Position numbers and translations under genes: made by a program
The notes under the pieces: model-generated
What the model was told of the DNA's origin: nothing
The model's database searches: none
The model's input: only the letters and a program-made list of their open reading frames with translations
In this document: piece after piece, positions 48,188 to 60,594 of the stretch
How the letters are laid out: every line of letters begins with the position of its first letter
Position numbering within the stretch: position 1 is the stretch's first letter
NCBI GenBank assembly: GCA_964547135.1
Contig: CAZJMK010000011.1
Location: 2,881 to 66,880 of the forward strand
DNA from: an uncultured Phycisphaeraceae bacterium
Lineage (GTDB): Bacteria > Planctomycetota > Phycisphaerae > Phycisphaerales > Phycisphaeraceae
Length of the DNA: 64,000 bases
Direction: 5' to 3'

Positions 48188-48564
48188 TGTCGCTGGCAAT
48201 ACACGCCTCACTTCAACATAGCCGTACCCCACACCCTTGAACAACGCTGGTTCCGGGTGTGGTCCCTACAGGTATGGGTCGGTTGCCTAGTTGCGGCAAA
48301 TCACGTGAAAACCGTTACCGCTGGTGCGATGTCAACCTTGCGGGTTGTCGCAGTCGTTGCAATCGGCACAGCAGGTTTATATGGACGCAGATTGGAGGAA
48401 GTGGCCGAGTGATGACGTAGGGTGGGTCAAGCGAGTCCGCGAGCGGACCCACCAATGACGTGATGGATGATGGATAATGGTTAATGGATAATGTTCGAAC
48501 ACAGAGTTGATGGACGTAAACCTGCTCTGAACATAATCCATCATCCTTTATCCATGATCCATCA

Positions 48565-50490
48565 TTACTGCCGTTGCGTCTGCACAGGCACCCGGGGTTG
48601 GGTCGGCGCAGCCGGGGCGGGGGTGAGTTCAACGCCTGTGGGTACGGGGAACGCACGTGCCGGGTCCAGGCCGATCTCTTTGCTCTGTTCTTCAAACGCT
48701 GTCCGCAGACGTTGATACACCCGGCCCTGCAACACCGTCGGCGTGTTCCGCCAGATGCGCGCCTTGAGCAAAATGTCTTCCGCACTGTTGATCGGGGCCA
48801 TCATCAACCCGATGTAGGTTTCCGCCACCACCTGATCAAACGGCAGAAACGCCATGCGCCGCTGATCCAGGTTCGGGTTGGCCACCGCACGCGCCTGATT
48901 TTTTTCATGCGCCAGTTTGGCCATCTGCACCGAATGTTCAAACACCTCCAGCCGATTGTTCGCAAGTCCCTGCGTGAACGCCTGAATCAGCATCGAATCA
49001 ATGAACTGGCGGGCAAAACTCAACTGATCAATATTCTCCGACAATTCACCGAACACCAGTTCCACCAAGGGCTGCGTGTATTTGCCGCTGGCGATACGTT
49101 CAGGCCGACTGCCGTAAAGCTCGCGCACGCGCTGGTAATAACGATTGGCTTCCTCCTGCGATCCGTACAGGTATGACCACACAATGGCCTTGAGCAGAAA
49201 ATTCTCATGACCAGCCTGGTAACTTTCCTTGGGGTTGCCCCGCCATTCACGTGCCATTAAATCACTGATCGCCAATTCCCACGCCTTTTCATAAGCCGGG
49301 ATGAACCGCGGGTCCGGCAGCAGATCCAAACGACCGGTGAACGGATCAAAATTCACCCGTCCCGAATCGGTCAGCGATTGCAGACTGTGCACCACCTGCC
49401 GATAGGTGTTGAGCAGGTCCACCTGCTGACTGCCCTTGATTTCCCCCGCCACGCGCGTGCCCATCGCATTCCAATACAGCGCCTGCGCCGCCGGGTGACG
49501 AAAATCCAGCGGACCAAAACCAAACCCGCCTTCGGCTTCAGGCAGCATCAATTCCAGCATGAACGCCGGGTCCATGAAGTAATCATCACGCAACGCCTGT
49601 TTGCGTAAATACGGCAGCAGCGCGTCCCACGCCGTCGCCAAGGCCGGCCGTTGATACAACTCCACCAGGCGACGATCAAAAATATCAGGGCGCTCGTTGC
49701 TGGAAAGCCCCAGGGCCGTCGCGTCCTCCGACTGTTTGAACATCACCAGCCGACCGACCTGTCGCAGCAGCCGAGTGTCGATGTCAAACCCCAGTCGATT
49801 CAACTCGGCCAGCAACTGTTCGACCTGTGGCGAGGCTTTGCGCAACTCTGAAAGTGTGTCCGGCGCAGCAACAATTTTCCTCCAGGGTTCAACCACTTTT
49901 TGAATGTCATTGGACCCGATCGGCGCACCGAGCAGCTCATGCCACTCTTCCGCGAGTCTGCGCTTGTAGTACCAGTGCATGTCGTCCATGAACCCGCCGA
50001 CTTTATGGAAAAAGATGTAGCCCAGTTCCTTGTAAAGCTGCACATTTCGCGGATTCAGCGGAATGCCCCGGTCACGCAAAAGTCGTATGCCCTTGTTGAC
50101 CCAATCCCACCGTTCCTGCGGCGTGTACGTGGCGACGGAAATGTTGTACGCCATGTTCCAGGCATGAAACACCCACACCGAGGCAAACGACGGTTGCAGC
50201 GTCGTGATCCACTCCGCCAATGAGTTGGCTTCGTAAAACTTACCCTGCTCTTTGAGCTTGTTGGTGCGATACCACAAAATGTCCGCCACGAGTCCGCGAA
50301 ACGCGCCCATCGCCGCCGTGGTCACCGTCGTGAGCGTGGCCTGTCCCTGCACCGCCTTTGCCGGAAGTTCCGAATGAAACTGCTGATCGATCCGTTGCGC
50401 ACGAATCGGCCCACTGAGCATCGCCGCCGCCCCCAGCAGCACCACCATGCCCACCACACACAGAAGTTGAATCCAATGATTGCGCGTCAT
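48565..50490 (-). CDS. N-terminally anchored hypothetical protein (641 aa), last gene of the SPFH/ABC operon
   Basis: Single N-terminal TM. Large Trp/Tyr-rich soluble domain. No recognisable motif. Confidence 0.4.
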   Translation of the reverse strand: MTRNHWIQLLCVVGMVVLLGAAAMLSGPIRAQRIDQQFHSELPAKAVQGQATLTTVTTAAMGAFRGLVADILWYRTNKLKEQGKFYEANSLAEWITTLQPSFASVWVFHAWNMAYNISVATYTPQERWDWVNKGIRLLRDRGIPLNPRNVQLYKELGYIFFHKVGGFMDDMHWYYKRRLAEEWHELLGAPIGSNDIQKVVEPWRKIVAAPDTLSELRKASPQVEQLLAELNRLGFDIDTRLLRQVGRLVMFKQSEDATALGLSSNERPDIFDRRLVELYQRPALATAWDALLPYLRKQALRDDYFMDPAFMLELMLPEAEGGFGFGPLDFRHPAAQALYWNAMGTRVAGEIKGSQQVDLLNTYRQVVHSLQSLTDSGRVNFDPFTGRLDLLPDPRFIPAYEKAWELAISDLMAREWRGNPKESYQAGHENFLLKAIVWSYLYGSQEEANRYYQRVRELYGSRPERIASGKYTQPLVELVFGELSENIDQLSFARQFIDSMLIQAFTQGLANNRLEVFEHSVQMAKLAHEKNQARAVANPNLDQRRMAFLPFDQVVAETYIGLMMAPINSAEDILLKARIWRNTPTVLQGRVYQRLRTAFEEQSKEIGLDPARAFPVPTGVELTPAPAAPTQPRVPVQTQRQ

Positions 50491-50636
50491 GTTCGGGGCG
50501 AATCGGTTAATTGGTTAACAGGTTGGTCAGACGCCGAGCCCTTCAGGGCCGGATGATCGTTGAATGAAACCGGGGCTAAAGCCCTCGGCGTCATTTTTTT
50601 CCATGGTTTATTTCTCTGCACTCGACCACTTTCTAT

Positions 50637-52478
50637 TCACTGCGTTACCGTCGCCAGTTCACGTCGTTTCAATATCCACCAGCCGACCAGCCCGGTCAAT
50701 CCGCAACCCAGCACCCCCAGCGACAAGCTCGCCCTGCCCACCAATTCCCCCGTCACCACCCGGCCGTCGGCCAATAACGTTGACGGACTGAACTTGCTCA
50801 GCGACGGCATCATCCATATCACCAAATTCCCCAGCCCGCCGACCACCATTTTGAACGCCTCATTGAATTTGCCGGCAATCAAGTGCCCGATCAGTGTCGC
50901 GGGCCAGCCGGCGATTTTTTCCCACCAACCCGCTCCCTCCAGCCCGGTGGCCCCGAAGTTGCCCACCGCTTCGCCCAAAAACCCGCTGCCGCTGCCCACC
51001 AGATACACCAACATGCAAAGCAGGCACGCCACCGGGAAACCCAAAAACGTACCCGCTGCCAGACCGAGCATCGCCAGAAACGCTAATTGCCACCAAATCA
51101 GTACGAGCGACCGTACCATGTTGTTTTCAAACCCGCCTACGCGATACAACAATTCCAACCCCTCGCCGGGCGTGAAACTCACGCTGCCGGCCGGGGTCGT
51201 TCGCGGGTCCATCAAATTGACATGGGCAATGGTCAGTTCCAATTGCCCCTGCTCATTGATCAATTCCGCAGGCAACGGTATCACCGAAAACTGATCGTGG
51301 GCCACATCGATCTGCATCGGCAAACCCTCCGCCGACAACGGCCAGGGTCGCCCGTTGATCGCAAACGCCAAATACACCTTGCCGTCCTCCGGCGACTGCG
51401 AAGCCCTCGGTTTCATCCGTAACTGCAACGGCACCCCCGCCTGTTTGGCGCGCTGCAATCCGCCAAACACAAACGTCTGCGTGCCCATCGGCGGAACCGT
51501 GTACCAGCGCGTCAGAATCACACTGCGAATCGCATTGATGTCCGCCTGTGACAATTCCTTGGGCTGCTGATCGGTGCCGAATTTTTCCGGGTTTTCACGA
51601 CGCAACTGCGCCAGTCGTTGCGTGAACAATTCCTGAAAGTTCATCGTCGTCGGCATGGCCGCTTCGACCGACCGCCGGGCGGATAACACTTCATAATCGA
51701 CCGTCGCCCGGTCCACCGCGTCCGCCGCCGGCTGGGTTTGCAACACCTTGGCGAACACGTAAATGCCCCCGCCCGCAGCCGACAACAACCATAAATTGAG
51801 CAGCACAATGCCCAGCCATTTGCCCGCCAGGTATTGCCCGCGACCGATCGGCTTGCTGAAGGTCAGGTAAATCTGCTTCTGACGAATTTCATTGCAAATC
51901 GTGCCCGCTGCCAGAAACACCGTCATCAGCGACAGCAATACCCCCGTGCCCGAAATCGCCCAACTCAAAAAGGTTTTGAGGCGATAGTTGAGCAGCTCCC
52001 GCGGGTCCATCAGCAGCGGCAATATCGGCACCAGCACCGCCACGCCCACAATGAACACCAAGGCCACTTTCATCCGCACCGCTTCATCGACAAGTGTGCG
52101 TGCCACGCCGATGATCGGATGTGAGCCGGACAAAACCACCCGCAGCAAAAGCAAACCCAGCGCGAACATCAAACCCATCGACCACACGCCGCCCAACCCG
52201 ATCGCCCAGCCCTGTGCCCCGCGTGCCCACAACCCCCAAACGACCAGGGCCATGAGGTTGGAACCGATCACCACCCCAGCCGACCACTTCACCCAGCGAC
52301 GATCGCGCCATAACCACATGCCCAGGTACACCCAAAGCAGTGCCGTCAACCCCGCGCCCAGCCCCAACCACTGCGCCAACCCCGCAGCCCCCTGTGCCGC
52401 GATCAATGGCGCAACGACCACCGCCAGCGCCACCAGCGCTGTGAGCACCGCCCACCATGTCCAAACTTTTGCTTTCAT
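50637..52478 (-). CDS. ABC-2 family permease with large extracytoplasmic domain
   Basis: ABC-2 permease motif NEIRQKQIYLTFSKPIGRGQYLAGKW. A ~230-aa soluble insert lies between TM bundles. Confidence 0.65.
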   Translation of the reverse strand: MKAKVWTWWAVLTALVALAVVVAPLIAAQGAAGLAQWLGLGAGLTALLWVYLGMWLWRDRRWVKWSAGVVIGSNLMALVVWGLWARGAQGWAIGLGGVWSMGLMFALGLLLLRVVLSGSHPIIGVARTLVDEAVRMKVALVFIVGVAVLVPILPLLMDPRELLNYRLKTFLSWAISGTGVLLSLMTVFLAAGTICNEIRQKQIYLTFSKPIGRGQYLAGKWLGIVLLNLWLLSAAGGGIYVFAKVLQTQPAADAVDRATVDYEVLSARRSVEAAMPTTMNFQELFTQRLAQLRRENPEKFGTDQQPKELSQADINAIRSVILTRWYTVPPMGTQTFVFGGLQRAKQAGVPLQLRMKPRASQSPEDGKVYLAFAINGRPWPLSAEGLPMQIDVAHDQFSVIPLPAELINEQGQLELTIAHVNLMDPRTTPAGSVSFTPGEGLELLYRVGGFENNMVRSLVLIWWQLAFLAMLGLAAGTFLGFPVACLLCMLVYLVGSGSGFLGEAVGNFGATGLEGAGWWEKIAGWPATLIGHLIAGKFNEAFKMVVGGLGNLVIWMMPSLSKFSPSTLLADGRVVTGELVGRASLSLGVLGCGLTGLVGWWILKRRELATVTQ

Positions 52479-52719
52479 TGCTGAATCACTGTCGGGGTGC
52501 ATGTGGGCAGGCGTTGCTATCAACCCACTGCGGTTTTCGTCTGTGGCACCCAAAGCGTTTCAATACATTGCTTGATACCACTCGTGGCGCTGGCTTATCA
52601 ATGCGAGGTTCGCTGAATCGGAGGGCTTCCACAACCAGCCTTTTTTCTCAATTCGAAATTCGACGGCTTCAACAGCGGGGCTTCCCGCTCAATTCGAAAT
52701 TCGAAATTCGAAATCAGTT

Positions 52720-54267
52720 TTATTTGTCTCCCTTTTTCTCCTGCTCGTCCTCTTCGTAAGCCGGCGTCTGTGTCAGTGCATCCAAAAACGAAGTATCCGG
52801 CTTTTCTTCATCACCCTCACCCGCCACCTGCTTTGCCGATACCTGCGACGTCGGCTGGTTTTTTACCGGGGCCGGGGGCGGGGGCGGGGCCGGGGTGTCG
52901 CTTTCATTTTTCCACTGATTGCCCAGTTGATTGATCGCGGCCAATTCCTCCGCGGTGGGCGGGGCTTCAAACGCATCCGCATTGTGACCGGCAGGTTGAA
53001 TGGGCGATGTCGAAACTTGCGTGCTGCCTGGCGCGGGTGGCGGGGTTTCTTCCGCTTTGCTCCACTGCGAACCCATCAAATCCGCCAGGGCTGATTCATC
53101 GACCTGTTCTTCCACTTTTGGCGATGTCGGCACGGCCGCTCCCGATGCCACGGTCATACCGCCTGCTACAGCCGCTGCGCCGATCCCTGCACCCGCAGCC
53201 GTCGTATTGGCCGAGTTCGTAGTCGTCGCCTTCGCCGGGGGTGTTGTTTGTGTGAGTGATTCGAGCACCCGCTGCGGCTCCACCGATTCGGTTTTCGTCG
53301 CTCCCGAGCGATCCGCCAAAAAGTCCGCAATCGCGCCGGTGTTGCGTGCCCCCGAAGTCTGCGCTCCCTCGGCCTGGGCCTGGGTGACGATATCCAAAAA
53401 AAATGCTTCGAGTGATTGCCGGGGTTGCTGCACCCGGTCCAAATGCTTGCCGCGTTGTTCGAGCAACTGTTCAATCGCGTTGATCGTGTCGCCGTCGAGT
53501 ACCGGGGCTTCGAGGGTGGTTTTATCCTGCCGGGTGAGCAATTCATCGGTCGTGCCCAGTGCTCTGATTTTTCCGCCGAACATGATCGCCACGCGGTCGC
53601 ACACATCCTCCACATCCGACAGCAGGTGCGAGCAAAGAATGATGGTTTTGCCCCGCCGTGATAGTTCGAGAATGAGGTCCTTGATCTGCCTGGTGCCGAT
53701 CGGGTCCATGCCTGTCGTCGGCTCATCGAGGATCAATAAATCCGGGTCGTTGATCAACGCCTGTGCCAAGCCGATGCGCCGCTGCATGCCCTTGGAATAT
53801 TCCCCCACCGCCCGCCGTTGCACGCCCTCCAGCCCGACCATTTCCAGCAGCTTGTCAATGCGCTGCCGGCGTTGCGTCGCATCCAAATGAAACAATCGCC
53901 CGTAGTAATCAAGGGTTTCCCGTGCATTGAGGAACCGGTACAGGTACGAGTCCTCCGGCAAATACCCAATGCGTTTTTTCGTGGCCACGTCCTCCGGCGA
54001 CTTGCCGAACACCACCACCTTGCCAGCCGACGGTCGAAGCAACCCCAGCGTCAGTTTGATCGTCGTCGATTTGCCCGAACCATTAGGCCCAAGCAAACCA
54101 AACACCTCACCCCGGCGAATGTCAAAGTGGATGCCATCAACCGCCTTGGCCTTGGCGCGCAGCCAAAAGTCACGGAACACCTTGGTCAATGCCACCGCAT
54201 GCACCACCACCTCGCCGGGGTCGGTCGTGCGCACGGAAGTCGGTTGGGTAGCGGTGAGTGTGGTCAT
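52720..54267 (-). CDS. ABC transporter ATP-binding protein with ~200-aa acidic low-complexity C-terminal tail
   Basis: Walker A GPNGSGKST, signature YSKGMQRRIGLA, Walker B LLILDEPTTGMD. The tail is Ala/Thr/Pro/Glu-rich with a duplicated QW..E..TPPPAP motif. Confidence 0.85.
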   Translation of the reverse strand: MTTLTATQPTSVRTTDPGEVVVHAVALTKVFRDFWLRAKAKAVDGIHFDIRRGEVFGLLGPNGSGKSTTIKLTLGLLRPSAGKVVVFGKSPEDVATKKRIGYLPEDSYLYRFLNARETLDYYGRLFHLDATQRRQRIDKLLEMVGLEGVQRRAVGEYSKGMQRRIGLAQALINDPDLLILDEPTTGMDPIGTRQIKDLILELSRRGKTIILCSHLLSDVEDVCDRVAIMFGGKIRALGTTDELLTRQDKTTLEAPVLDGDTINAIEQLLEQRGKHLDRVQQPRQSLEAFFLDIVTQAQAEGAQTSGARNTGAIADFLADRSGATKTESVEPQRVLESLTQTTPPAKATTTNSANTTAAGAGIGAAAVAGGMTVASGAAVPTSPKVEEQVDESALADLMGSQWSKAEETPPPAPGSTQVSTSPIQPAGHNADAFEAPPTAEELAAINQLGNQWKNESDTPAPPPPPAPVKNQPTSQVSAKQVAGEGDEEKPDTSFLDALTQTPAYEEDEQEKKGDK

Positions 54268-54269
54268 GG

Positions 54270-54478
54270 TGATGGTGAATCGGTTGGTCGGTGAATCGGT
54301 GAATCAAACGCCGAGCACTTTAGGGCCGGATGATCGTCGGAAGAATCCGGGGCTAAAGCCCTCGGCGTCTCGGCCACTTGGCCACTGCTTTCCGTCAGAT
54401 ACCCAAGTCCTCGTCCGCCTGCGGCGACCTCGTCCTTGGCTTGGCAAATCCGAAATTCGAAATTCCAAATTCGAAATT
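54270..54478. repeat. composite intergenic repeat block
   Basis: ggtgaatcggttggtcggtgaatcggtgaatc and the inverted pair aacgccgagcactttagggccggat / atccggggctaaagccctcggcgtc. The ccaagtcctcgtcc..cctcgtccttggcttgg hairpin and an (aaattcg)n tract are also present. Confidence 0.8.
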
Positions 54479-56004
54479 CATCTCCCCATCCGTGCATCCT
54501 GTTCGGCTTTCAACCTTGCCTGTTCACGTTGACGTTTCAAGTTCTGGTCACGGTTGAGGTCCAAATACGTCTGGCCCGTCGGCACGTAAAACACTTCAAT
54601 ATCACCGGTCATGGTCTGGTCCACCATGTCCTGCCAGCGACGTGACAAAAACACCCCCGGGCTTTGCTGATACTGTTGCAACAAACCCTGTTGCGGGCTG
54701 TCGGGGAAAATCGCTTTGGGGTTAAAGGCCAGTGCCTCCGCCTGCACCTGTGCGACGATCGACGATCGGGCTGCGCGTGCCTCGTTGATCGCCTGTGCCA
54801 CCCGTCCGCCGATGGGCGTCACCACTCGTTCCCGCATCGGCACCTCATGCTTTTCCAGTGCCGCTTCATACGCCCGGTTGGCGGCCACCACCTTCTCCGC
54901 TTCCGCTGCCGCCCGTCGCAACGCTTCGAGTTGCAGGTATGCGTTCCAAACTTCGTCCCCCGCGTCGCCATCCAGCCCCGCCCAGCCGGGCACGTTGAGG
55001 TGTTGAAACACCACATCCAAGCGGGCATCGAGTTTGGTCAATGCCTGCATATCACCCGCACCTCGGGCGCGTTCGTAGCGATCAATCAATCGGCGAATCG
55101 GCTCGTACCCCGCCCCTGCGGTTTCATTCAAACTCGAAAGCGCTTCCTGCCGGGCTTTTTCAATTTTCTGCGCCTTTTCACTGGCGGCTTCGGTCACCGC
55201 TCGGAACGCCGGCTGAACCGCTGCGGGGAACTTGGGCGTGCTCGCAGTCACTTCACTGACCAGTATGCCCGCCCCGAGGGTGTCCAACACCGTCTGCATG
55301 TGACGCTTGATCGCATCGGCACGCAGGTTGCCAAGTATCGCCTCGTCAGCCGTGACGGTTGCCACGGCGTGTACAATCGCTTCCTCAGCGGCGCCCTGCA
55401 CCAGTCGCTGTGCGGCGCCGAGTGCATTGCGCGGGTCCGACGATGGCGTGGTCACATTGCGGATGAAATCCAGCGGGCGATTGATTTCATACTTCACCGA
55501 AAACCGCGCGTGAATGATGTTGCCGTCGCCGGTGAGCAGCGACCCATCCTTTTCCGGGTTCAGCGGCCCAGCCCGACCTTCCGCCTCCGCCTCGGTCGCC
55601 GCCCCAGCCGGTATTTCATGCCAGAACTCTCGATTCAATGGAAGCTGTTGCGAAGCCACCGGAATGAACACCACCTGATCGATGGGGTACGGGAAGGCAA
55701 AGTAAACCCGACCGGGGCGCATGACCGCCTGTTCCGCGGTGTCGCCGACGATCTGCCCGAAGCGCAGCCGAACGCCGACTTCCTGTGCGGGAATGCCCCA
55801 AACAATGCCCGACAAAAGGTACAGCACCGCCAGCACGAGCATGATCAGTTTGAGTACGCCAAAGCTCACGCGCAAGGCGTCGGCCAGCGAGCGCTGAGCC
55901 GGGTCCATCTCCGCGGTGGGCAGCCCATGATCATGGTCGTGGTCATGATCGTGATCGTCATGACCGTGATGATGTTCAAACGGATTGAAGGGTTTTTCAG
56001 CCAT
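54478..56004 (-). CDS. hflK: HflK-like SPFH (band-7) protein with His/Asp-rich N-terminus
   Basis: N-terminal HHHGHDDHDHDHDHDHG, then a TM helix, SPFH domain and coiled-coil. Confidence 0.7.
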   Translation of the reverse strand: MAEKPFNPFEHHHGHDDHDHDHDHDHGLPTAEMDPAQRSLADALRVSFGVLKLIMLVLAVLYLLSGIVWGIPAQEVGVRLRFGQIVGDTAEQAVMRPGRVYFAFPYPIDQVVFIPVASQQLPLNREFWHEIPAGAATEAEAEGRAGPLNPEKDGSLLTGDGNIIHARFSVKYEINRPLDFIRNVTTPSSDPRNALGAAQRLVQGAAEEAIVHAVATVTADEAILGNLRADAIKRHMQTVLDTLGAGILVSEVTASTPKFPAAVQPAFRAVTEAASEKAQKIEKARQEALSSLNETAGAGYEPIRRLIDRYERARGAGDMQALTKLDARLDVVFQHLNVPGWAGLDGDAGDEVWNAYLQLEALRRAAAEAEKVVAANRAYEAALEKHEVPMRERVVTPIGGRVAQAINEARAARSSIVAQVQAEALAFNPKAIFPDSPQQGLLQQYQQSPGVFLSRRWQDMVDQTMTGDIEVFYVPTGQTYLDLNRDQNLKRQREQARLKAEQDARMGR

Positions 56005-56184
56005 GATTGCCTGTTCACAGGGGCGTGATGCCCGAGGTTGATTCTGTCAAAACATTGGGTTTTCGACCTTGGACTTTATCTCCGTCAGGTACCCGGGCCC
56101 TCGGCACGCGCTTCGCTTGTGCCTCGTTCCCGGCTTGGCTCTGAAAATCCGAAATCCGAAATTCGAAATTCATTGCCACTTCCA

Positions 56185-57081
56185 TCATTTCTCCGTCTTC
56201 CCCGGCGTCAGCATGTTTTCCACGCCCAGTTGCTCGGCACTGAGTACGAACGTCGAGTTGTGCGGCAATATTTTTTTGAGCGTGTCGATGCGCCGCAAAA
56301 AAATCGCCAACTGTTCATCTTCCTTGAACGCCTTGTAATACTCGGCTGCCTCCATCAATCCCTGGGTGCGAATGGCCTGCGCCCGGTTCTCGGCAAACGC
56401 CAGTATGATGCGTTGAATGCTCTGGGCTTCGCTCTTGATGGTCAGGGCCTGAAACTCGCCTTCCGACCGCGCGTTCTGCGCCAGGGTTTGCCGGGTCTGC
56501 CGCATGCGTTCGAACACCTTGGTGGTCACCTGTTCGGGCAGCACCATGCGCCGAATGCCAAAGTGCTCCACCTTCATGCCGAAGTTCTGCGCCTCCAGTT
56601 GCGCGTTGATGGCTGCCAAGGCCTGCTCCTCCGCCTGCGCCAGTTTGAGCTTGTTCATATCGGTGTTGACCAATTCATCAAACCGATATTTGCTGATGAT
56701 CTTGCGCAGCTCACGCACCATCGGCAGCACCTTCTTCTGCGCCTCCTCCACCGTCTTCACCCGGTTGTAAAACGACAGCGGATCGGAAATCCGCCAGGCC
56801 AGGTACGTGCGCGGTATCACCGCAAACCCGTCAGCCGTCTGCATCTCTTCCAACTGGTCTTCCAAAATCTGCACCCGTGTCGGAAATTTATACACCCCCT
56901 GCATCGGCGGCGGCAGGCGCAAATAGGGCCAGGGCCGGGGCGTTTTGACCGACCCCTCGTCCGCAGCGCCCAAGGTGGTCAGCACCGCCACCTCGTCGTA
57001 CCGCACCTGAAACATCAGCATGAAGCTGAGCAGGCTCACGCTCAGAATCACCGCCACGAACAGCATCAATCGACTTTTCAT
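56185..57081 (-). CDS. hflC: HflC-like SPFH protein
   Basis: N-terminal TM plus VRYDEVAVLTTLG SPFH start, typical of HflC. Confidence 0.7.
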   Translation of the reverse strand: MKSRLMLFVAVILSVSLLSFMLMFQVRYDEVAVLTTLGAADEGSVKTPRPWPYLRLPPPMQGVYKFPTRVQILEDQLEEMQTADGFAVIPRTYLAWRISDPLSFYNRVKTVEEAQKKVLPMVRELRKIISKYRFDELVNTDMNKLKLAQAEEQALAAINAQLEAQNFGMKVEHFGIRRMVLPEQVTTKVFERMRQTRQTLAQNARSEGEFQALTIKSEAQSIQRIILAFAENRAQAIRTQGLMEAAEYYKAFKEDEQLAIFLRRIDTLKKILPHNSTFVLSAEQLGVENMLTPGKTEK

Positions 57082-57129
57082 ATCAGAAACGACTCCGTTG
57101 AGGGATCATTTTTACCACAGAGACACACT

Positions 57130-57220
57130 GGGGCTTGTAGCTGGGTGCTTGGGGCTGGGCTTTGGTTTGATCGCCATTCACCTGTCTCTGCCCAGCACCT
57201 AGCTCCTAGTCCCCAGCTCC
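57130..57220. repeat. gene-less MITE-like element (same family) inside the SPFH operon
   Basis: ggggcttgtagctgggtgcttggggctgggc ... gcccagcacctagctcctagtccccagctcc. Confidence 0.7.
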
Positions 57221-57227
57221 GTGCAAT

Positions 57228-59429
57228 TCACCGCCCCGGTTGTAAAAATCCTTCCAGCGTCGAGGTGGCATCCTTCAAATCAATCCGATGCACCCCGGGT
57301 ACGCCCGTGTTTTCATGGACGATGTACTTGCGCGGTTTGGCCAACCCTTCCGCCAGGGCGTCCAAATACGCTCGACCCTTGAAATATTGCGGGGCCTGTT
57401 TGTACGCAGCCGCCAGTGCCGGGAAAGCCTGCGCCTTGCTGCGCTCAGCAATGCCCGTCTCCCACCGCTGCGCCCGTGCTTCGTAAATGATCTGACTGGC
57501 CTGCCCCGGTGCCGCCACCAGCAGTGCTTCGATCTGTGCTTCCTGTGCCGCCACCGCTGCGCCCAGTTCGGTCAATCGCGCACCCACTTCACCAGCCGAT
57601 CGCATTTTCAGCGACTCAACCTGTTCCCGCAATTTTTCCAACGCCAATACCGCATCACGAATCTGCAACGCCATTTCTTCCGACCCCGCCACCTGCGCCA
57701 GGGTTTGAATCCGTTCCTGCTTGGCTTTCCAGATGGTGGTTTCCTTTTCCTGAATCGCGCCGACCTGTTCATGGAACGCCGCCGCCACCTGTACGCCTTC
57801 GCCGCCGTCAGCACTTTCGCCGCCGCGGGGCGGGTGAATGCCCACCACGCCCACATAGACCACCTGCACGCCCATGTGCAGGGCATCCGCCTGCTTTTGA
57901 ATCGCCTGCCGCATGAACTGGCCCGCTTCCAATCGGCCTCGACCGATCAGCGTGTCCAAATCCTTGGTGACAAAATATTCGGTGAGTGTACGATCCGCCA
58001 GGGCGGACATCAGTTGTTCAGGTTTCTGTGCCGAGGTGACATATTTCGTCAGGTCCGTGATCTGATAATGCACCAACACTTCCGCCGCCACCAGGGACAC
58101 AGCCGGGGTTGACCCTGCCGCTGCCGAGGGTGCGGTGTTGCCCGCATCGCTGCGTCCCTCTTCCCGGACCGTCGGTGCGGTGATGAGGTATTCCTCTTTG
58201 CCGTCCACGTGTACGTTCGTCCACAAAATGGCCGTATCTTCCTTGAGTTTCTGATACGACCCCACCCGTGCCACCTGAATCCGCCCCACGTCATACCGCT
58301 GCACCCCGCCGATCGGCCAGGGCCATTTCAAATGCAGCCCCGGTCCAACCGGTTCCCCACGCATCGCCCCGAACGTCGTGATCACCGCCTGCTGCTGCGG
58401 TTCCACAATCACGATCGACCCAATCAACAGCAAAATCCCCAAGCCACTGGCCAACAGCGGCGTGATCGACCGCGACATCAACATGTAAAACCAGCTTCGG
58501 CTGATTTCAAAACCAAACTGATAGTTGATCGTCTCGTTGACGATTTTCGCCAACCCCTCCGGCTTGGTCAGCCAACCCAGCAACCGCGAATCAAACGCCG
58601 GCCTTGGTATTTCACCGGGTTTACGTGGCCGATATGCCCCCGACAAAAACGAAAGCACGATTTCCAGCCCCAACAGCGTCATCAGCCCCGGCACCACCAG
58701 CCCGACCCATGCCATGATGCTTTCGTTGCCAAACAGGGCAAACCCCGCCCCCGCCAAAATCAGCAGCGCGACCAGCACCAACCCCATCAAATAACCCGCC
58801 CCGCTGCGCAACAACTGCCACTCTTTCTGCACCGTCATCCCCGCGGCATAGCGCCCCACAATGAACGCCACAAACGCAATCCCCGCCATGAACGCCATCA
58901 ATAAACCAGGGTTGCCATCCGCTCTATCGCCCAACGCTCTGGTCACAAACATCGGCGAACCGAGCGTGCGATACCCCAGCACCAGCAGCGTGATACCCAC
59001 CGCAAGCAGATATACCGCCAAGGCCAGACTGACCCCGTTCAAGCCCCACTGATACAAATTGTCCAGCCGTTTGCGGGCGATGCGCAGTTCATCCGCCTGG
59101 GTTTCAAACAGCGCAGCCGTGGGCGCGTTGCTGCGCGATAGCTGCTCCACCTCCAGCGTTTCAGCGCGTTCAATCTGATGCTGTTTGTAAATCAGCCAGA
59201 GAATCGCCCACAGGGGCAGTCCGCCCAGAAAGTGCCAGGTGGCGGCGTGCAAGGCCGGCGACTGCGCCCACAAGCCCGTCACCGCCATCACGGCTGACAA
59301 CAGCAATTGCACGCACAAACCCAGCAATGCCGCGTTGCCTGCCCGACGATACGACTGTTGATCCTGCACCATGCCTGGTTCCGTATGAAGGGGCCAATCT
59401 CGCAATTCACGCCTCGACAGGTTCTGCAA
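57228..59429 (-). CDS. SPFH/HflK-like protein fused to a ~300-aa polytopic N-terminal membrane domain
   Basis: Six to eight predicted TM helices. SPFH core follows (ITTFGAMRGEPVGPGLHLKWPWPIGGVQ). HflK-like C-terminal coiled-coil. Confidence 0.65.
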   Translation of the reverse strand: MQNLSRRELRDWPLHTEPGMVQDQQSYRRAGNAALLGLCVQLLLSAVMAVTGLWAQSPALHAATWHFLGGLPLWAILWLIYKQHQIERAETLEVEQLSRSNAPTAALFETQADELRIARKRLDNLYQWGLNGVSLALAVYLLAVGITLLVLGYRTLGSPMFVTRALGDRADGNPGLLMAFMAGIAFVAFIVGRYAAGMTVQKEWQLLRSGAGYLMGLVLVALLILAGAGFALFGNESIMAWVGLVVPGLMTLLGLEIVLSFLSGAYRPRKPGEIPRPAFDSRLLGWLTKPEGLAKIVNETINYQFGFEISRSWFYMLMSRSITPLLASGLGILLLIGSIVIVEPQQQAVITTFGAMRGEPVGPGLHLKWPWPIGGVQRYDVGRIQVARVGSYQKLKEDTAILWTNVHVDGKEEYLITAPTVREEGRSDAGNTAPSAAAGSTPAVSLVAAEVLVHYQITDLTKYVTSAQKPEQLMSALADRTLTEYFVTKDLDTLIGRGRLEAGQFMRQAIQKQADALHMGVQVVYVGVVGIHPPRGGESADGGEGVQVAAAFHEQVGAIQEKETTIWKAKQERIQTLAQVAGSEEMALQIRDAVLALEKLREQVESLKMRSAGEVGARLTELGAAVAAQEAQIEALLVAAPGQASQIIYEARAQRWETGIAERSKAQAFPALAAAYKQAPQYFKGRAYLDALAEGLAKPRKYIVHENTGVPGVHRIDLKDATSTLEGFLQPGR

Positions 59430-59565
59430 ACCTCCCGCAAGGGCTATATCTTATGCACGAACCCAACCGGGCAAACAACATTCAAGCTGCTGGCGTATGA
59501 TGAACAATATCGTGTTTCGTCTGTCTCCGTGATCCGTACACCTTTGTCAGCCCGACCGGACCGAC

Positions 59566-60594
59566 ATGCTAGAGCAACTTTTCACCATCAGTCGTAACAC
59601 ATTCCTTGAAAGCATACGTCAGCCGATCTTTGTGGTTCTGCTGATGGTGGGGGCCATGGTACTGATTTTGAACCCAGCCGTGGCCGCCTACACGATGGAT
59701 GATGATAACAAGCTGATGATCGATATGGGGCTGTCCACGCTTTTTGTCATCGGGGTTTTATTGGCCGCCTTCACCGCCACGGGCGTCGTCTCCACTGAAG
59801 TCGAAAATCGCACCGTGCTCACCGTGGTCAGCAAACCCGTGCCCCGTCCCCTGTTTGTGCTGGGCAAATATCTGGGCGTCGGCGTGGCCCTCACCCTTGC
59901 CTTCTGGGTACTGGGCGGTTTGTTTCTGCTTTCAGCTCGTCACGGGGTATTGCAAACCGCCGGTGATGCCTTCGACATGCCCGTCGTCCTTGCCGCCTTC
60001 ATCGCCTGGGCCGGCGCCCTGGCCGTCGGCGCACTGGGTAATTATTTTTACCGCTGGGTGTTCACCTCCAGTTTCGTTTTGTCACTGGCGTTATTGACCA
60101 TTCCAGCCGTGCTGTTGATGCTGCTGGTCGGCAAAGGTTGGCACTTTCAATCCATCAGCACCGAGTTCGGCCTTGAAGGCGCTGCCCGCGGCGGCCGATT
60201 GCTGGTGGTGATGTTGCTGGTGTTGCAGGCCATCTGGGTACTCACCGCTGTCGCCATTGCCGCCTCGACGCGCCTGGGCCAGTTGATGACGCTGATGGTT
60301 TGTGCAGGGGTATTTCTGCTGGGGCTGGTCAGTGAAACCCTGATCCAACCAGCCGTGGCGCGACTGCCCTGGGGCGAGGTCACCAGCCTCGGCTCCCTGA
60401 TCGGCTTTTTACTGGCGCGATTGGCCTCCATCGCTGTGCCCAACCTGCAATTTCTCTGGCTGGTCGATACCCTGCCGCAGGGGTTACCCATTCCCGCCGA
60501 CCACGTCGGTTTGCTGACAATATACGCTTTGCTGCAAATCGGCGCGGTGCTCTGCCTTGCCACCGCCCTCTTCCAAACCCGTGAAGTGGGCTGA
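59566..60594 (+). CDS. ABC-2 family permease (divergent from the operon)
   Basis: VSTEVENRTVLTVVSKPVPRPLFVLGKYLG ABC-2 motif. 6-7 TM helices. Confidence 0.65.
   Translation: MLEQLFTISRNTFLESIRQPIFVVLLMVGAMVLILNPAVAAYTMDDDNKLMIDMGLSTLFVIGVLLAAFTATGVVSTEVENRTVLTVVSKPVPRPLFVLGKYLGVGVALTLAFWVLGGLFLLSARHGVLQTAGDAFDMPVVLAAFIAWAGALAVGALGNYFYRWVFTSSFVLSLALLTIPAVLLMLLVGKGWHFQSISTEFGLEGAARGGRLLVVMLLVLQAIWVLTAVAIAASTRLGQLMTLMVCAGVFLLGLVSETLIQPAVARLPWGEVTSLGSLIGFLLARLASIAVPNLQFLWLVDTLPQGLPIPADHVGLLTIYALLQIGAVLCLATALFQTREVG

Follow-up and report, generated by a model that had tools for sequence, protein, structure and literature searches.

Seven adjacent genes in the 64-kb window (the whole stretch of DNA analysed here) link three HflK/HflC-like SPFH proteins to an ABC-2 type transport system, and we conclude that they form one conserved module. 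Six of them, g1 to g6, are co-directional open reading frames on the minus strand at 48565-59429, and an ORF check confirmed all six exactly where the initial annotation had placed them. The seventh gene, g7, lies on the plus strand at 59566-60594 and encodes a divergent paralogous permease.

The block is conserved across the class Phycisphaerae and is not specific to this strain. A scan anchored on g6 found this gene in at least 586 species genomes. Colinearity was counted in the 54 g6-anchored loci that had at least 9 kb of upstream DNA, and the complete block, in the order g7(-) g1 g2 g3 g4 g5 g6, was present in 52 of these genomes, with g7 divergent in all 52. In a reciprocal metagenome scan anchored on g1, which was limited to the 30 loci with enough downstream DNA, 24 contigs carried the complete block. 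Median protein identities across orthologous blocks were 30-60%. The flanks were unrelated between loci, and any flanking family occurred in at most 16 of 80 orthologous loci. A gene order unique to this strain had been named at the outset as a refutation of the proposed link; this fails because the order is kept in both sets of loci beside unrelated flanks. The genetic tie between the SPFH genes and an exporter is real and deeply conserved, although the two halves come apart in rare loci. The four ABC-side genes occur together without the SPFH trio in L031 and L032, whereas L130 has the trio but no ABC module, so the two halves are separable. Moreover, g7 and the trio were found without g4-g6 in L106/L107, g6 was not adjacent in 3 of the 30 g1-anchored loci, and g6 stood alone in L061. 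No SPFH-ABC gene fusion was found.

The SPFH trio and its relation to FtsH

Each of g1, g2, and g3 carries a Band_7 domain, and their best NCBIfam models were hflK, hflC, and hflK, respectively, as expected from their first description as HflK- and HflC-like proteins. All three scores were under the equivalog cut-offs. The g1 gene (57228..59372, minus strand; Band_7 E 2e-12) encodes an HflK-like protein of 714 aa according to the public gene call, which starts at Met20 of an ORF reaching upstream to a TTG at 59429. It scored 91.8 bits against hflK TIGR01933 (cut-off 159.4), and its sole PDB sequence match was E. coli HflK residues 268-348. The unusual polytopic N-terminus of g1, initially put at about 300 aa, proved to be a conserved domain of about 320 aa with about seven predicted TM helices, and the motifs YRPR...FDSR and NYQFG within it are conserved across 53 orthologues. 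The HflC-like g2 (56185..57081, minus strand; Band_7 E 2.4e-19) has 298 aa and one N-terminal TM helix. It aligned with nearly the whole of hflC TIGR01932 at 105.1 bits (cut-off 134.4) and matched HflC 199-318 in the PDB. The second HflK-like protein, g3 (54478..56004, minus strand; 508 aa; Band_7 E 6.4e-19), scored 72.9 bits against TIGR01933, with the same cut-off of 159.4, and had a weak PDB match to HflK. Its predicted layout begins on the cytoplasmic side with an N-tail rich in His and Asp, HHHGHDDHDHDHDHDHG, followed by a single TM helix and an extended helical region at the C-terminus; the conserved motif DPANQSLADALR lies directly ahead of the TM helix. A TM segment precedes the SPFH domain in each of the three proteins, and the PDB matches, which had no other solved relatives among them, cover the helical region after the SPFH domain. 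All topologies given here were predicted by hydropathy and the positive-inside rule only. The gene order hflK-hflC is kept by g1 and g2, and the third, HflK-like gene that comes next is atypical. The three proteins are very divergent from one another and are therefore old, specialised paralogues.

The trio resembles the E. coli HflK/HflC-FtsH complex (PDB 7VHP, 7WI3) in having an N-terminal anchor, an SPFH domain, and a helical C-terminal region, as well as in the order of g1 and g2, and a hetero-oligomeric assembly would be expected. However, there are three paralogues here instead of two, the 7-TM domain of g1 replaces a single helix, the linked partner is an ABC system, and there is no hflX/ftsH context. 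The trio may simply be the FtsH modulators of this lineage. It would then be the Phycisphaerae HflK/HflC acting on FtsH in membrane-protein quality control, and its adjacency to the ABC genes would reflect envelope co-regulation or transporter turnover by FtsH. We consider this explanation rather unlikely. It fits the fact that all three proteins have HflK and HflC as their sole solved relatives and best NCBIfam models, the preserved hflK-hflC order, and the separate occurrence of the trio (L130) and the ABC module (L031, L032). In one lineage (L088), an FtsH gene (AAA + Peptidase_M41) is also found upstream of g7, at a distance of about 5.8 kb. On the other hand, ftsH was absent from the 498 flanking ORFs of the 80 orthologous loci, and no part of the 64-kb window encodes an FtsH signature, as the initial annotation had said of the neighbourhood. 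The scores below the equivalog cut-offs also argue against it, as do the 7-TM domain and the third paralogue, neither of which is known for HflK/C. Without a functional link, it would be difficult to account for the trio being kept precisely between g7 and g4 at 30-45% identity. The arrangement suggests instead a scaffold cage whose client is the transporter, not FtsH.

The ABC half, g6, and the possible cargo

The g4 gene (52720..54267, minus strand) encodes a 515-aa ABC ATPase of the DrrA/GldA/NosF type (ABC_tran 112.8 bits, E 2.5e-32). Its motifs are intact, namely GPNGSGKS (Walker A), YSKGMQ (signature), LLILDEP (Walker B-Glu), and SH (H-loop), and it is the best-conserved gene of the block, with a median identity of 60%. 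The protein ends in a low-complexity tail of 231 aa rich in Ala, Thr, Pro, and Glu, which was missing from the earlier description. Its best NCBIfam models were drrA (224.7 bits) and GldA (201.6 bits), both below their cut-offs. In L025, g4 and g5 are fused into one gene. A comparison with the PADLOC defence models gave only generic ABC-ATPase matches to g4 and no match to the six others, and the block was not assigned to an anti-phage defence system.

The permease g5 (50637..52553, minus strand) has 603-638 aa, as its start is uncertain; the public call gives 603 aa from 52448. It combines four extra N-terminal TM helices with a NosY-like core, and its closest structural relative is NosY of the copper-delivery system. 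Both ABC2_membrane_2 (PF12679) and a type-V fold were found for the permease. Its periplasmic insert, predicted to be an alpha/beta-sandwich, was first estimated at about 230 aa and measures about 195 aa (residues ~279-474). The plus-strand gene g7 encodes an ABC-2 (NosY-like) permease of 342 aa, whose orthologues match PF12679. The g5 family profile aligned with g7 by hhalign at a probability of 94.9% (g5 147-261, g7 5-117). By this profile comparison, the core of g5 and g7 are paralogues, and g7 is likely to be the second transmembrane subunit of the transporter. Many g7 orthologues carry an extra insert of about 190 aa, which the g7 of this window does not have.

The last gene, g6 (48565..50490, minus strand), encodes a protein of 641 aa, in which an N-terminal TM anchor is followed by about 580 aa predicted to form an all-helical solenoid, probably TPR-like. 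Many Trp, Asn, Arg, Asp, and His residues are invariant in g6, which had no match in Pfam, NCBIfam, or PDB sequences. The Pfam search of the cluster proteins gave matches to Band_7, ABC ATPase-type, and ABC-2 permease models and to no other family.

The ABC half was compared with three known systems. NosDFY (PDB 7O0Y), which acts in copper-site assembly of N2O reductase, likewise has an ABC-2-type ATPase and a large periplasmic partner alongside. In the Nos system, NosL hands copper to NosD within NosDFY, from which it reaches NosZ (bioRxiv 10.64898/2025.12.16.694761), and the ABC part thus serves a periplasmic partner. In contrast to the NosY homodimer, g5 and g7 would form a heterodimer, g5 has the four extra helices and the periplasmic beta-sandwich, and g6 is a predicted all-helical, TPR-like solenoid where NosD is a beta-helix. 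No NosD, NosL, NosZ, or NosR gene was found in the block, and no NosD, NosL, or NosZ gene in the flanks; the block does not belong to the Nos (NosDFYL) system. The lipopolysaccharide extractor LptB2FG offers an analogy only, with its two different permeases and one ATPase; a periplasmic beta-rich insert is present in g5, and many g7 orthologues also have an insert. The match to it was much weaker than that to NosY. Membership, which would require an LptB equivalog ATPase and LptF/LptG permeases, was rejected. On the LptB model, g4 reached 142 bits against a cut-off of 240, and no LptC- or LptA-like genes were found. The GldA/GldF/GldG system of gliding Bacteroidota shares an ABC-2 permease system and a large accessory envelope protein, and GldA was the second-best model of g4. 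However, it belongs to a different phylum and has no SPFH genes, and the GldA score of g4 compares with a cut-off of 402.6. No GldG-type auxiliary domain was detected, since the Pfam matches were confined to the three kinds of model given above; the block was not assigned to GldAFG.

As g5 is structurally nearest to NosY, the module could be a transition-metal exporter or supply the metal within the periplasm, like NosDFY with copper, and the His/Asp tail of g3 would be a putative cytoplasmic metal binder or sensor. Metal binding had been suggested from this tail in the initial annotation, and the hints for it are circumstantial. His-rich N-tails were found in 21 of 95 g3 orthologues from distant lineages, but 78% of the orthologues have none. 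The near-invariant histidines of g6, including those of a WRHPAAH stretch, are consistent with metal handling, whereas no His, Cys, or Met is invariant across the g5 family. A P-type ATPase adjoins g7 in L085, L086, and L088, and a gene for a CobW/HypB/UreG-family GTPase comes after the trio in L106, yet each is restricted to one lineage. The cluster also has no NosD, NosL, or NosZ, and no metal riboswitch or other Rfam element was found. Metal handling therefore appears improbable as the function of the module.

Still less probable is the export of a polysaccharide or glycolipid for the glycosyltransferase/Wzy cluster at 27.6-35.4 kb, although the neighbouring polysaccharide had been considered as cargo. 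The window does contain Wzy_C and GT1/GT2 genes, and periplasmic TPR proteins, such as g6 may be, are common in exopolysaccharide secretion. However, more than 13 kb separates the glycosyltransferase genes from the block, with genes for a PBP4-like peptidase, Hsp70, an S49 peptidase, a decarboxylase, and a GGDEF-EAL protein in between, and in orthologous loci neither a glycosyltransferase nor any other flanking family is conserved beside the block. The similarity of the beta-sandwich in the g5 insert is generic.

A proposed inner-membrane assembly

Returning to the transporter as the client of the SPFH cage, we propose that the products of the seven genes act as a single conserved module in the inner membrane of Phycisphaerae, made up of two halves that interact. 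The first half would be an ATP-driven type-V (ABC-2, NosFY-like) system, in which two copies of the g4 ATPase sit on a g5/g7 heterodimer of paralogous permeases. The beta-sandwich domain of g5 would project into the periplasm, and the membrane-anchored g6 may be the periplasmic partner or adaptor of the ABC system. The second half would be a heteromeric HflK/HflC-type assembly of g1, g2, and g3, with the SPFH and coiled-coil parts predicted to lie on the periplasmic side, as they do in E. coli HflK/C. This assembly may corral or gate the ABC system within a circumscribed patch of membrane, much as HflK/C cages enclose FtsH. Contact between the halves within the membrane would likely be made by the conserved 7-TM domain of g1 with its two basic cytoplasmic loops. 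In direction and cargo, the ABC half would resemble other type-V systems and extract or expel a membrane-associated (lipidic or lipid-linked) molecule. Alternatively, it could pass ATP-driven movement to the periplasmic partner, as NosFY does to NosD.

Judged from sequence, it is about an even call that the products form a heterodimeric type-V ABC machine, joined in the periplasm by a TPR-like partner, inside or beside an HflK/C-type assembly. We put forward more tentatively an HflK/HflC-type nanocompartment of three specialised paralogues with a hard-wired ABC client, in which the 7-TM domain of g1 is the coupling element. The "microdomain-organised export machine" of the initial annotation is a putative description drawn from synteny. 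If the proposal is true, the module would represent a new functional class of SPFH cage that is core to a whole bacterial class.

The component kinds (SPFH, ABC-2) are known, and no description of such a combination of an SPFH trio with an ABC system was found in the searched literature. As precedents, hetero-oligomeric domed rings have been described for SPFH proteins (PMC12624060), and stomatins have been described as modulators of channels and transporters (PMC5383999). Stomatin/QmcA-NfeD operons similarly hard-wire SPFH genes with a dedicated membrane partner, and the PaFlo5-7 genes of Pseudomonas aeruginosa are a precedent for three SPFH genes in one predicted operon (PMC13086221). Unlike in these systems, the genes here are tied to a full ABC system and a TPR-like protein instead of an NfeD protease or OB-fold protein, and the block is core to the whole class rather than sporadically acquired.

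Gene spacing and transcription in the window

The genes of the orthologous clusters are packed closely, as in an operon: their median minimal spacers were -4 to 33 nt, and the gene calls of L085, L086, and L087 contain 4-nt overlaps. In the window, the spacers between the genes are 146-210 nt long and filled with 7-8-nt tandem repeats. That the adjacency is meaningless, with two unrelated gene sets side by side, is very unlikely. The separable halves and the long spacers of this block would fit it, but independent loci are colinear in 52 of 54 and 24 of 30 cases; identity in them is 30-45%, their flanks are unrelated, and genes overlap. The repeats had been described as a feature of the spacers. 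They are real, but they are not specific to the operon because the same repeats occur in intergenic DNA throughout the window, where the GAATTTCGAATTTCGG repeat had 32 matches against 0.7 expected.

The divergent intergenic region between g7 and g1 (59373..59565, no strand) presumably holds promoters in both directions, judging from the gene starts. No sigma-70-like site was found in this region, and neither the region nor the block gave an Rfam match, metal riboswitches included. Internal promoters or terminators may exist in the block of the window, as the spacers are 146-210 nt long with weak hairpins (z -0.8 to -2.4). The only strong hairpin signal of the block follows g6, where two stable hairpins lie directly 3' of the stop codon (48426..48564, minus strand). 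The RNA fold of 48415-48564 on the minus strand reached -65.2 kcal/mol (z = -7.46), and 0 of 200 shuffles were as stable. The hairpins after g6 may act as a transcription terminator and mark the probable 3' end of the transcription unit.

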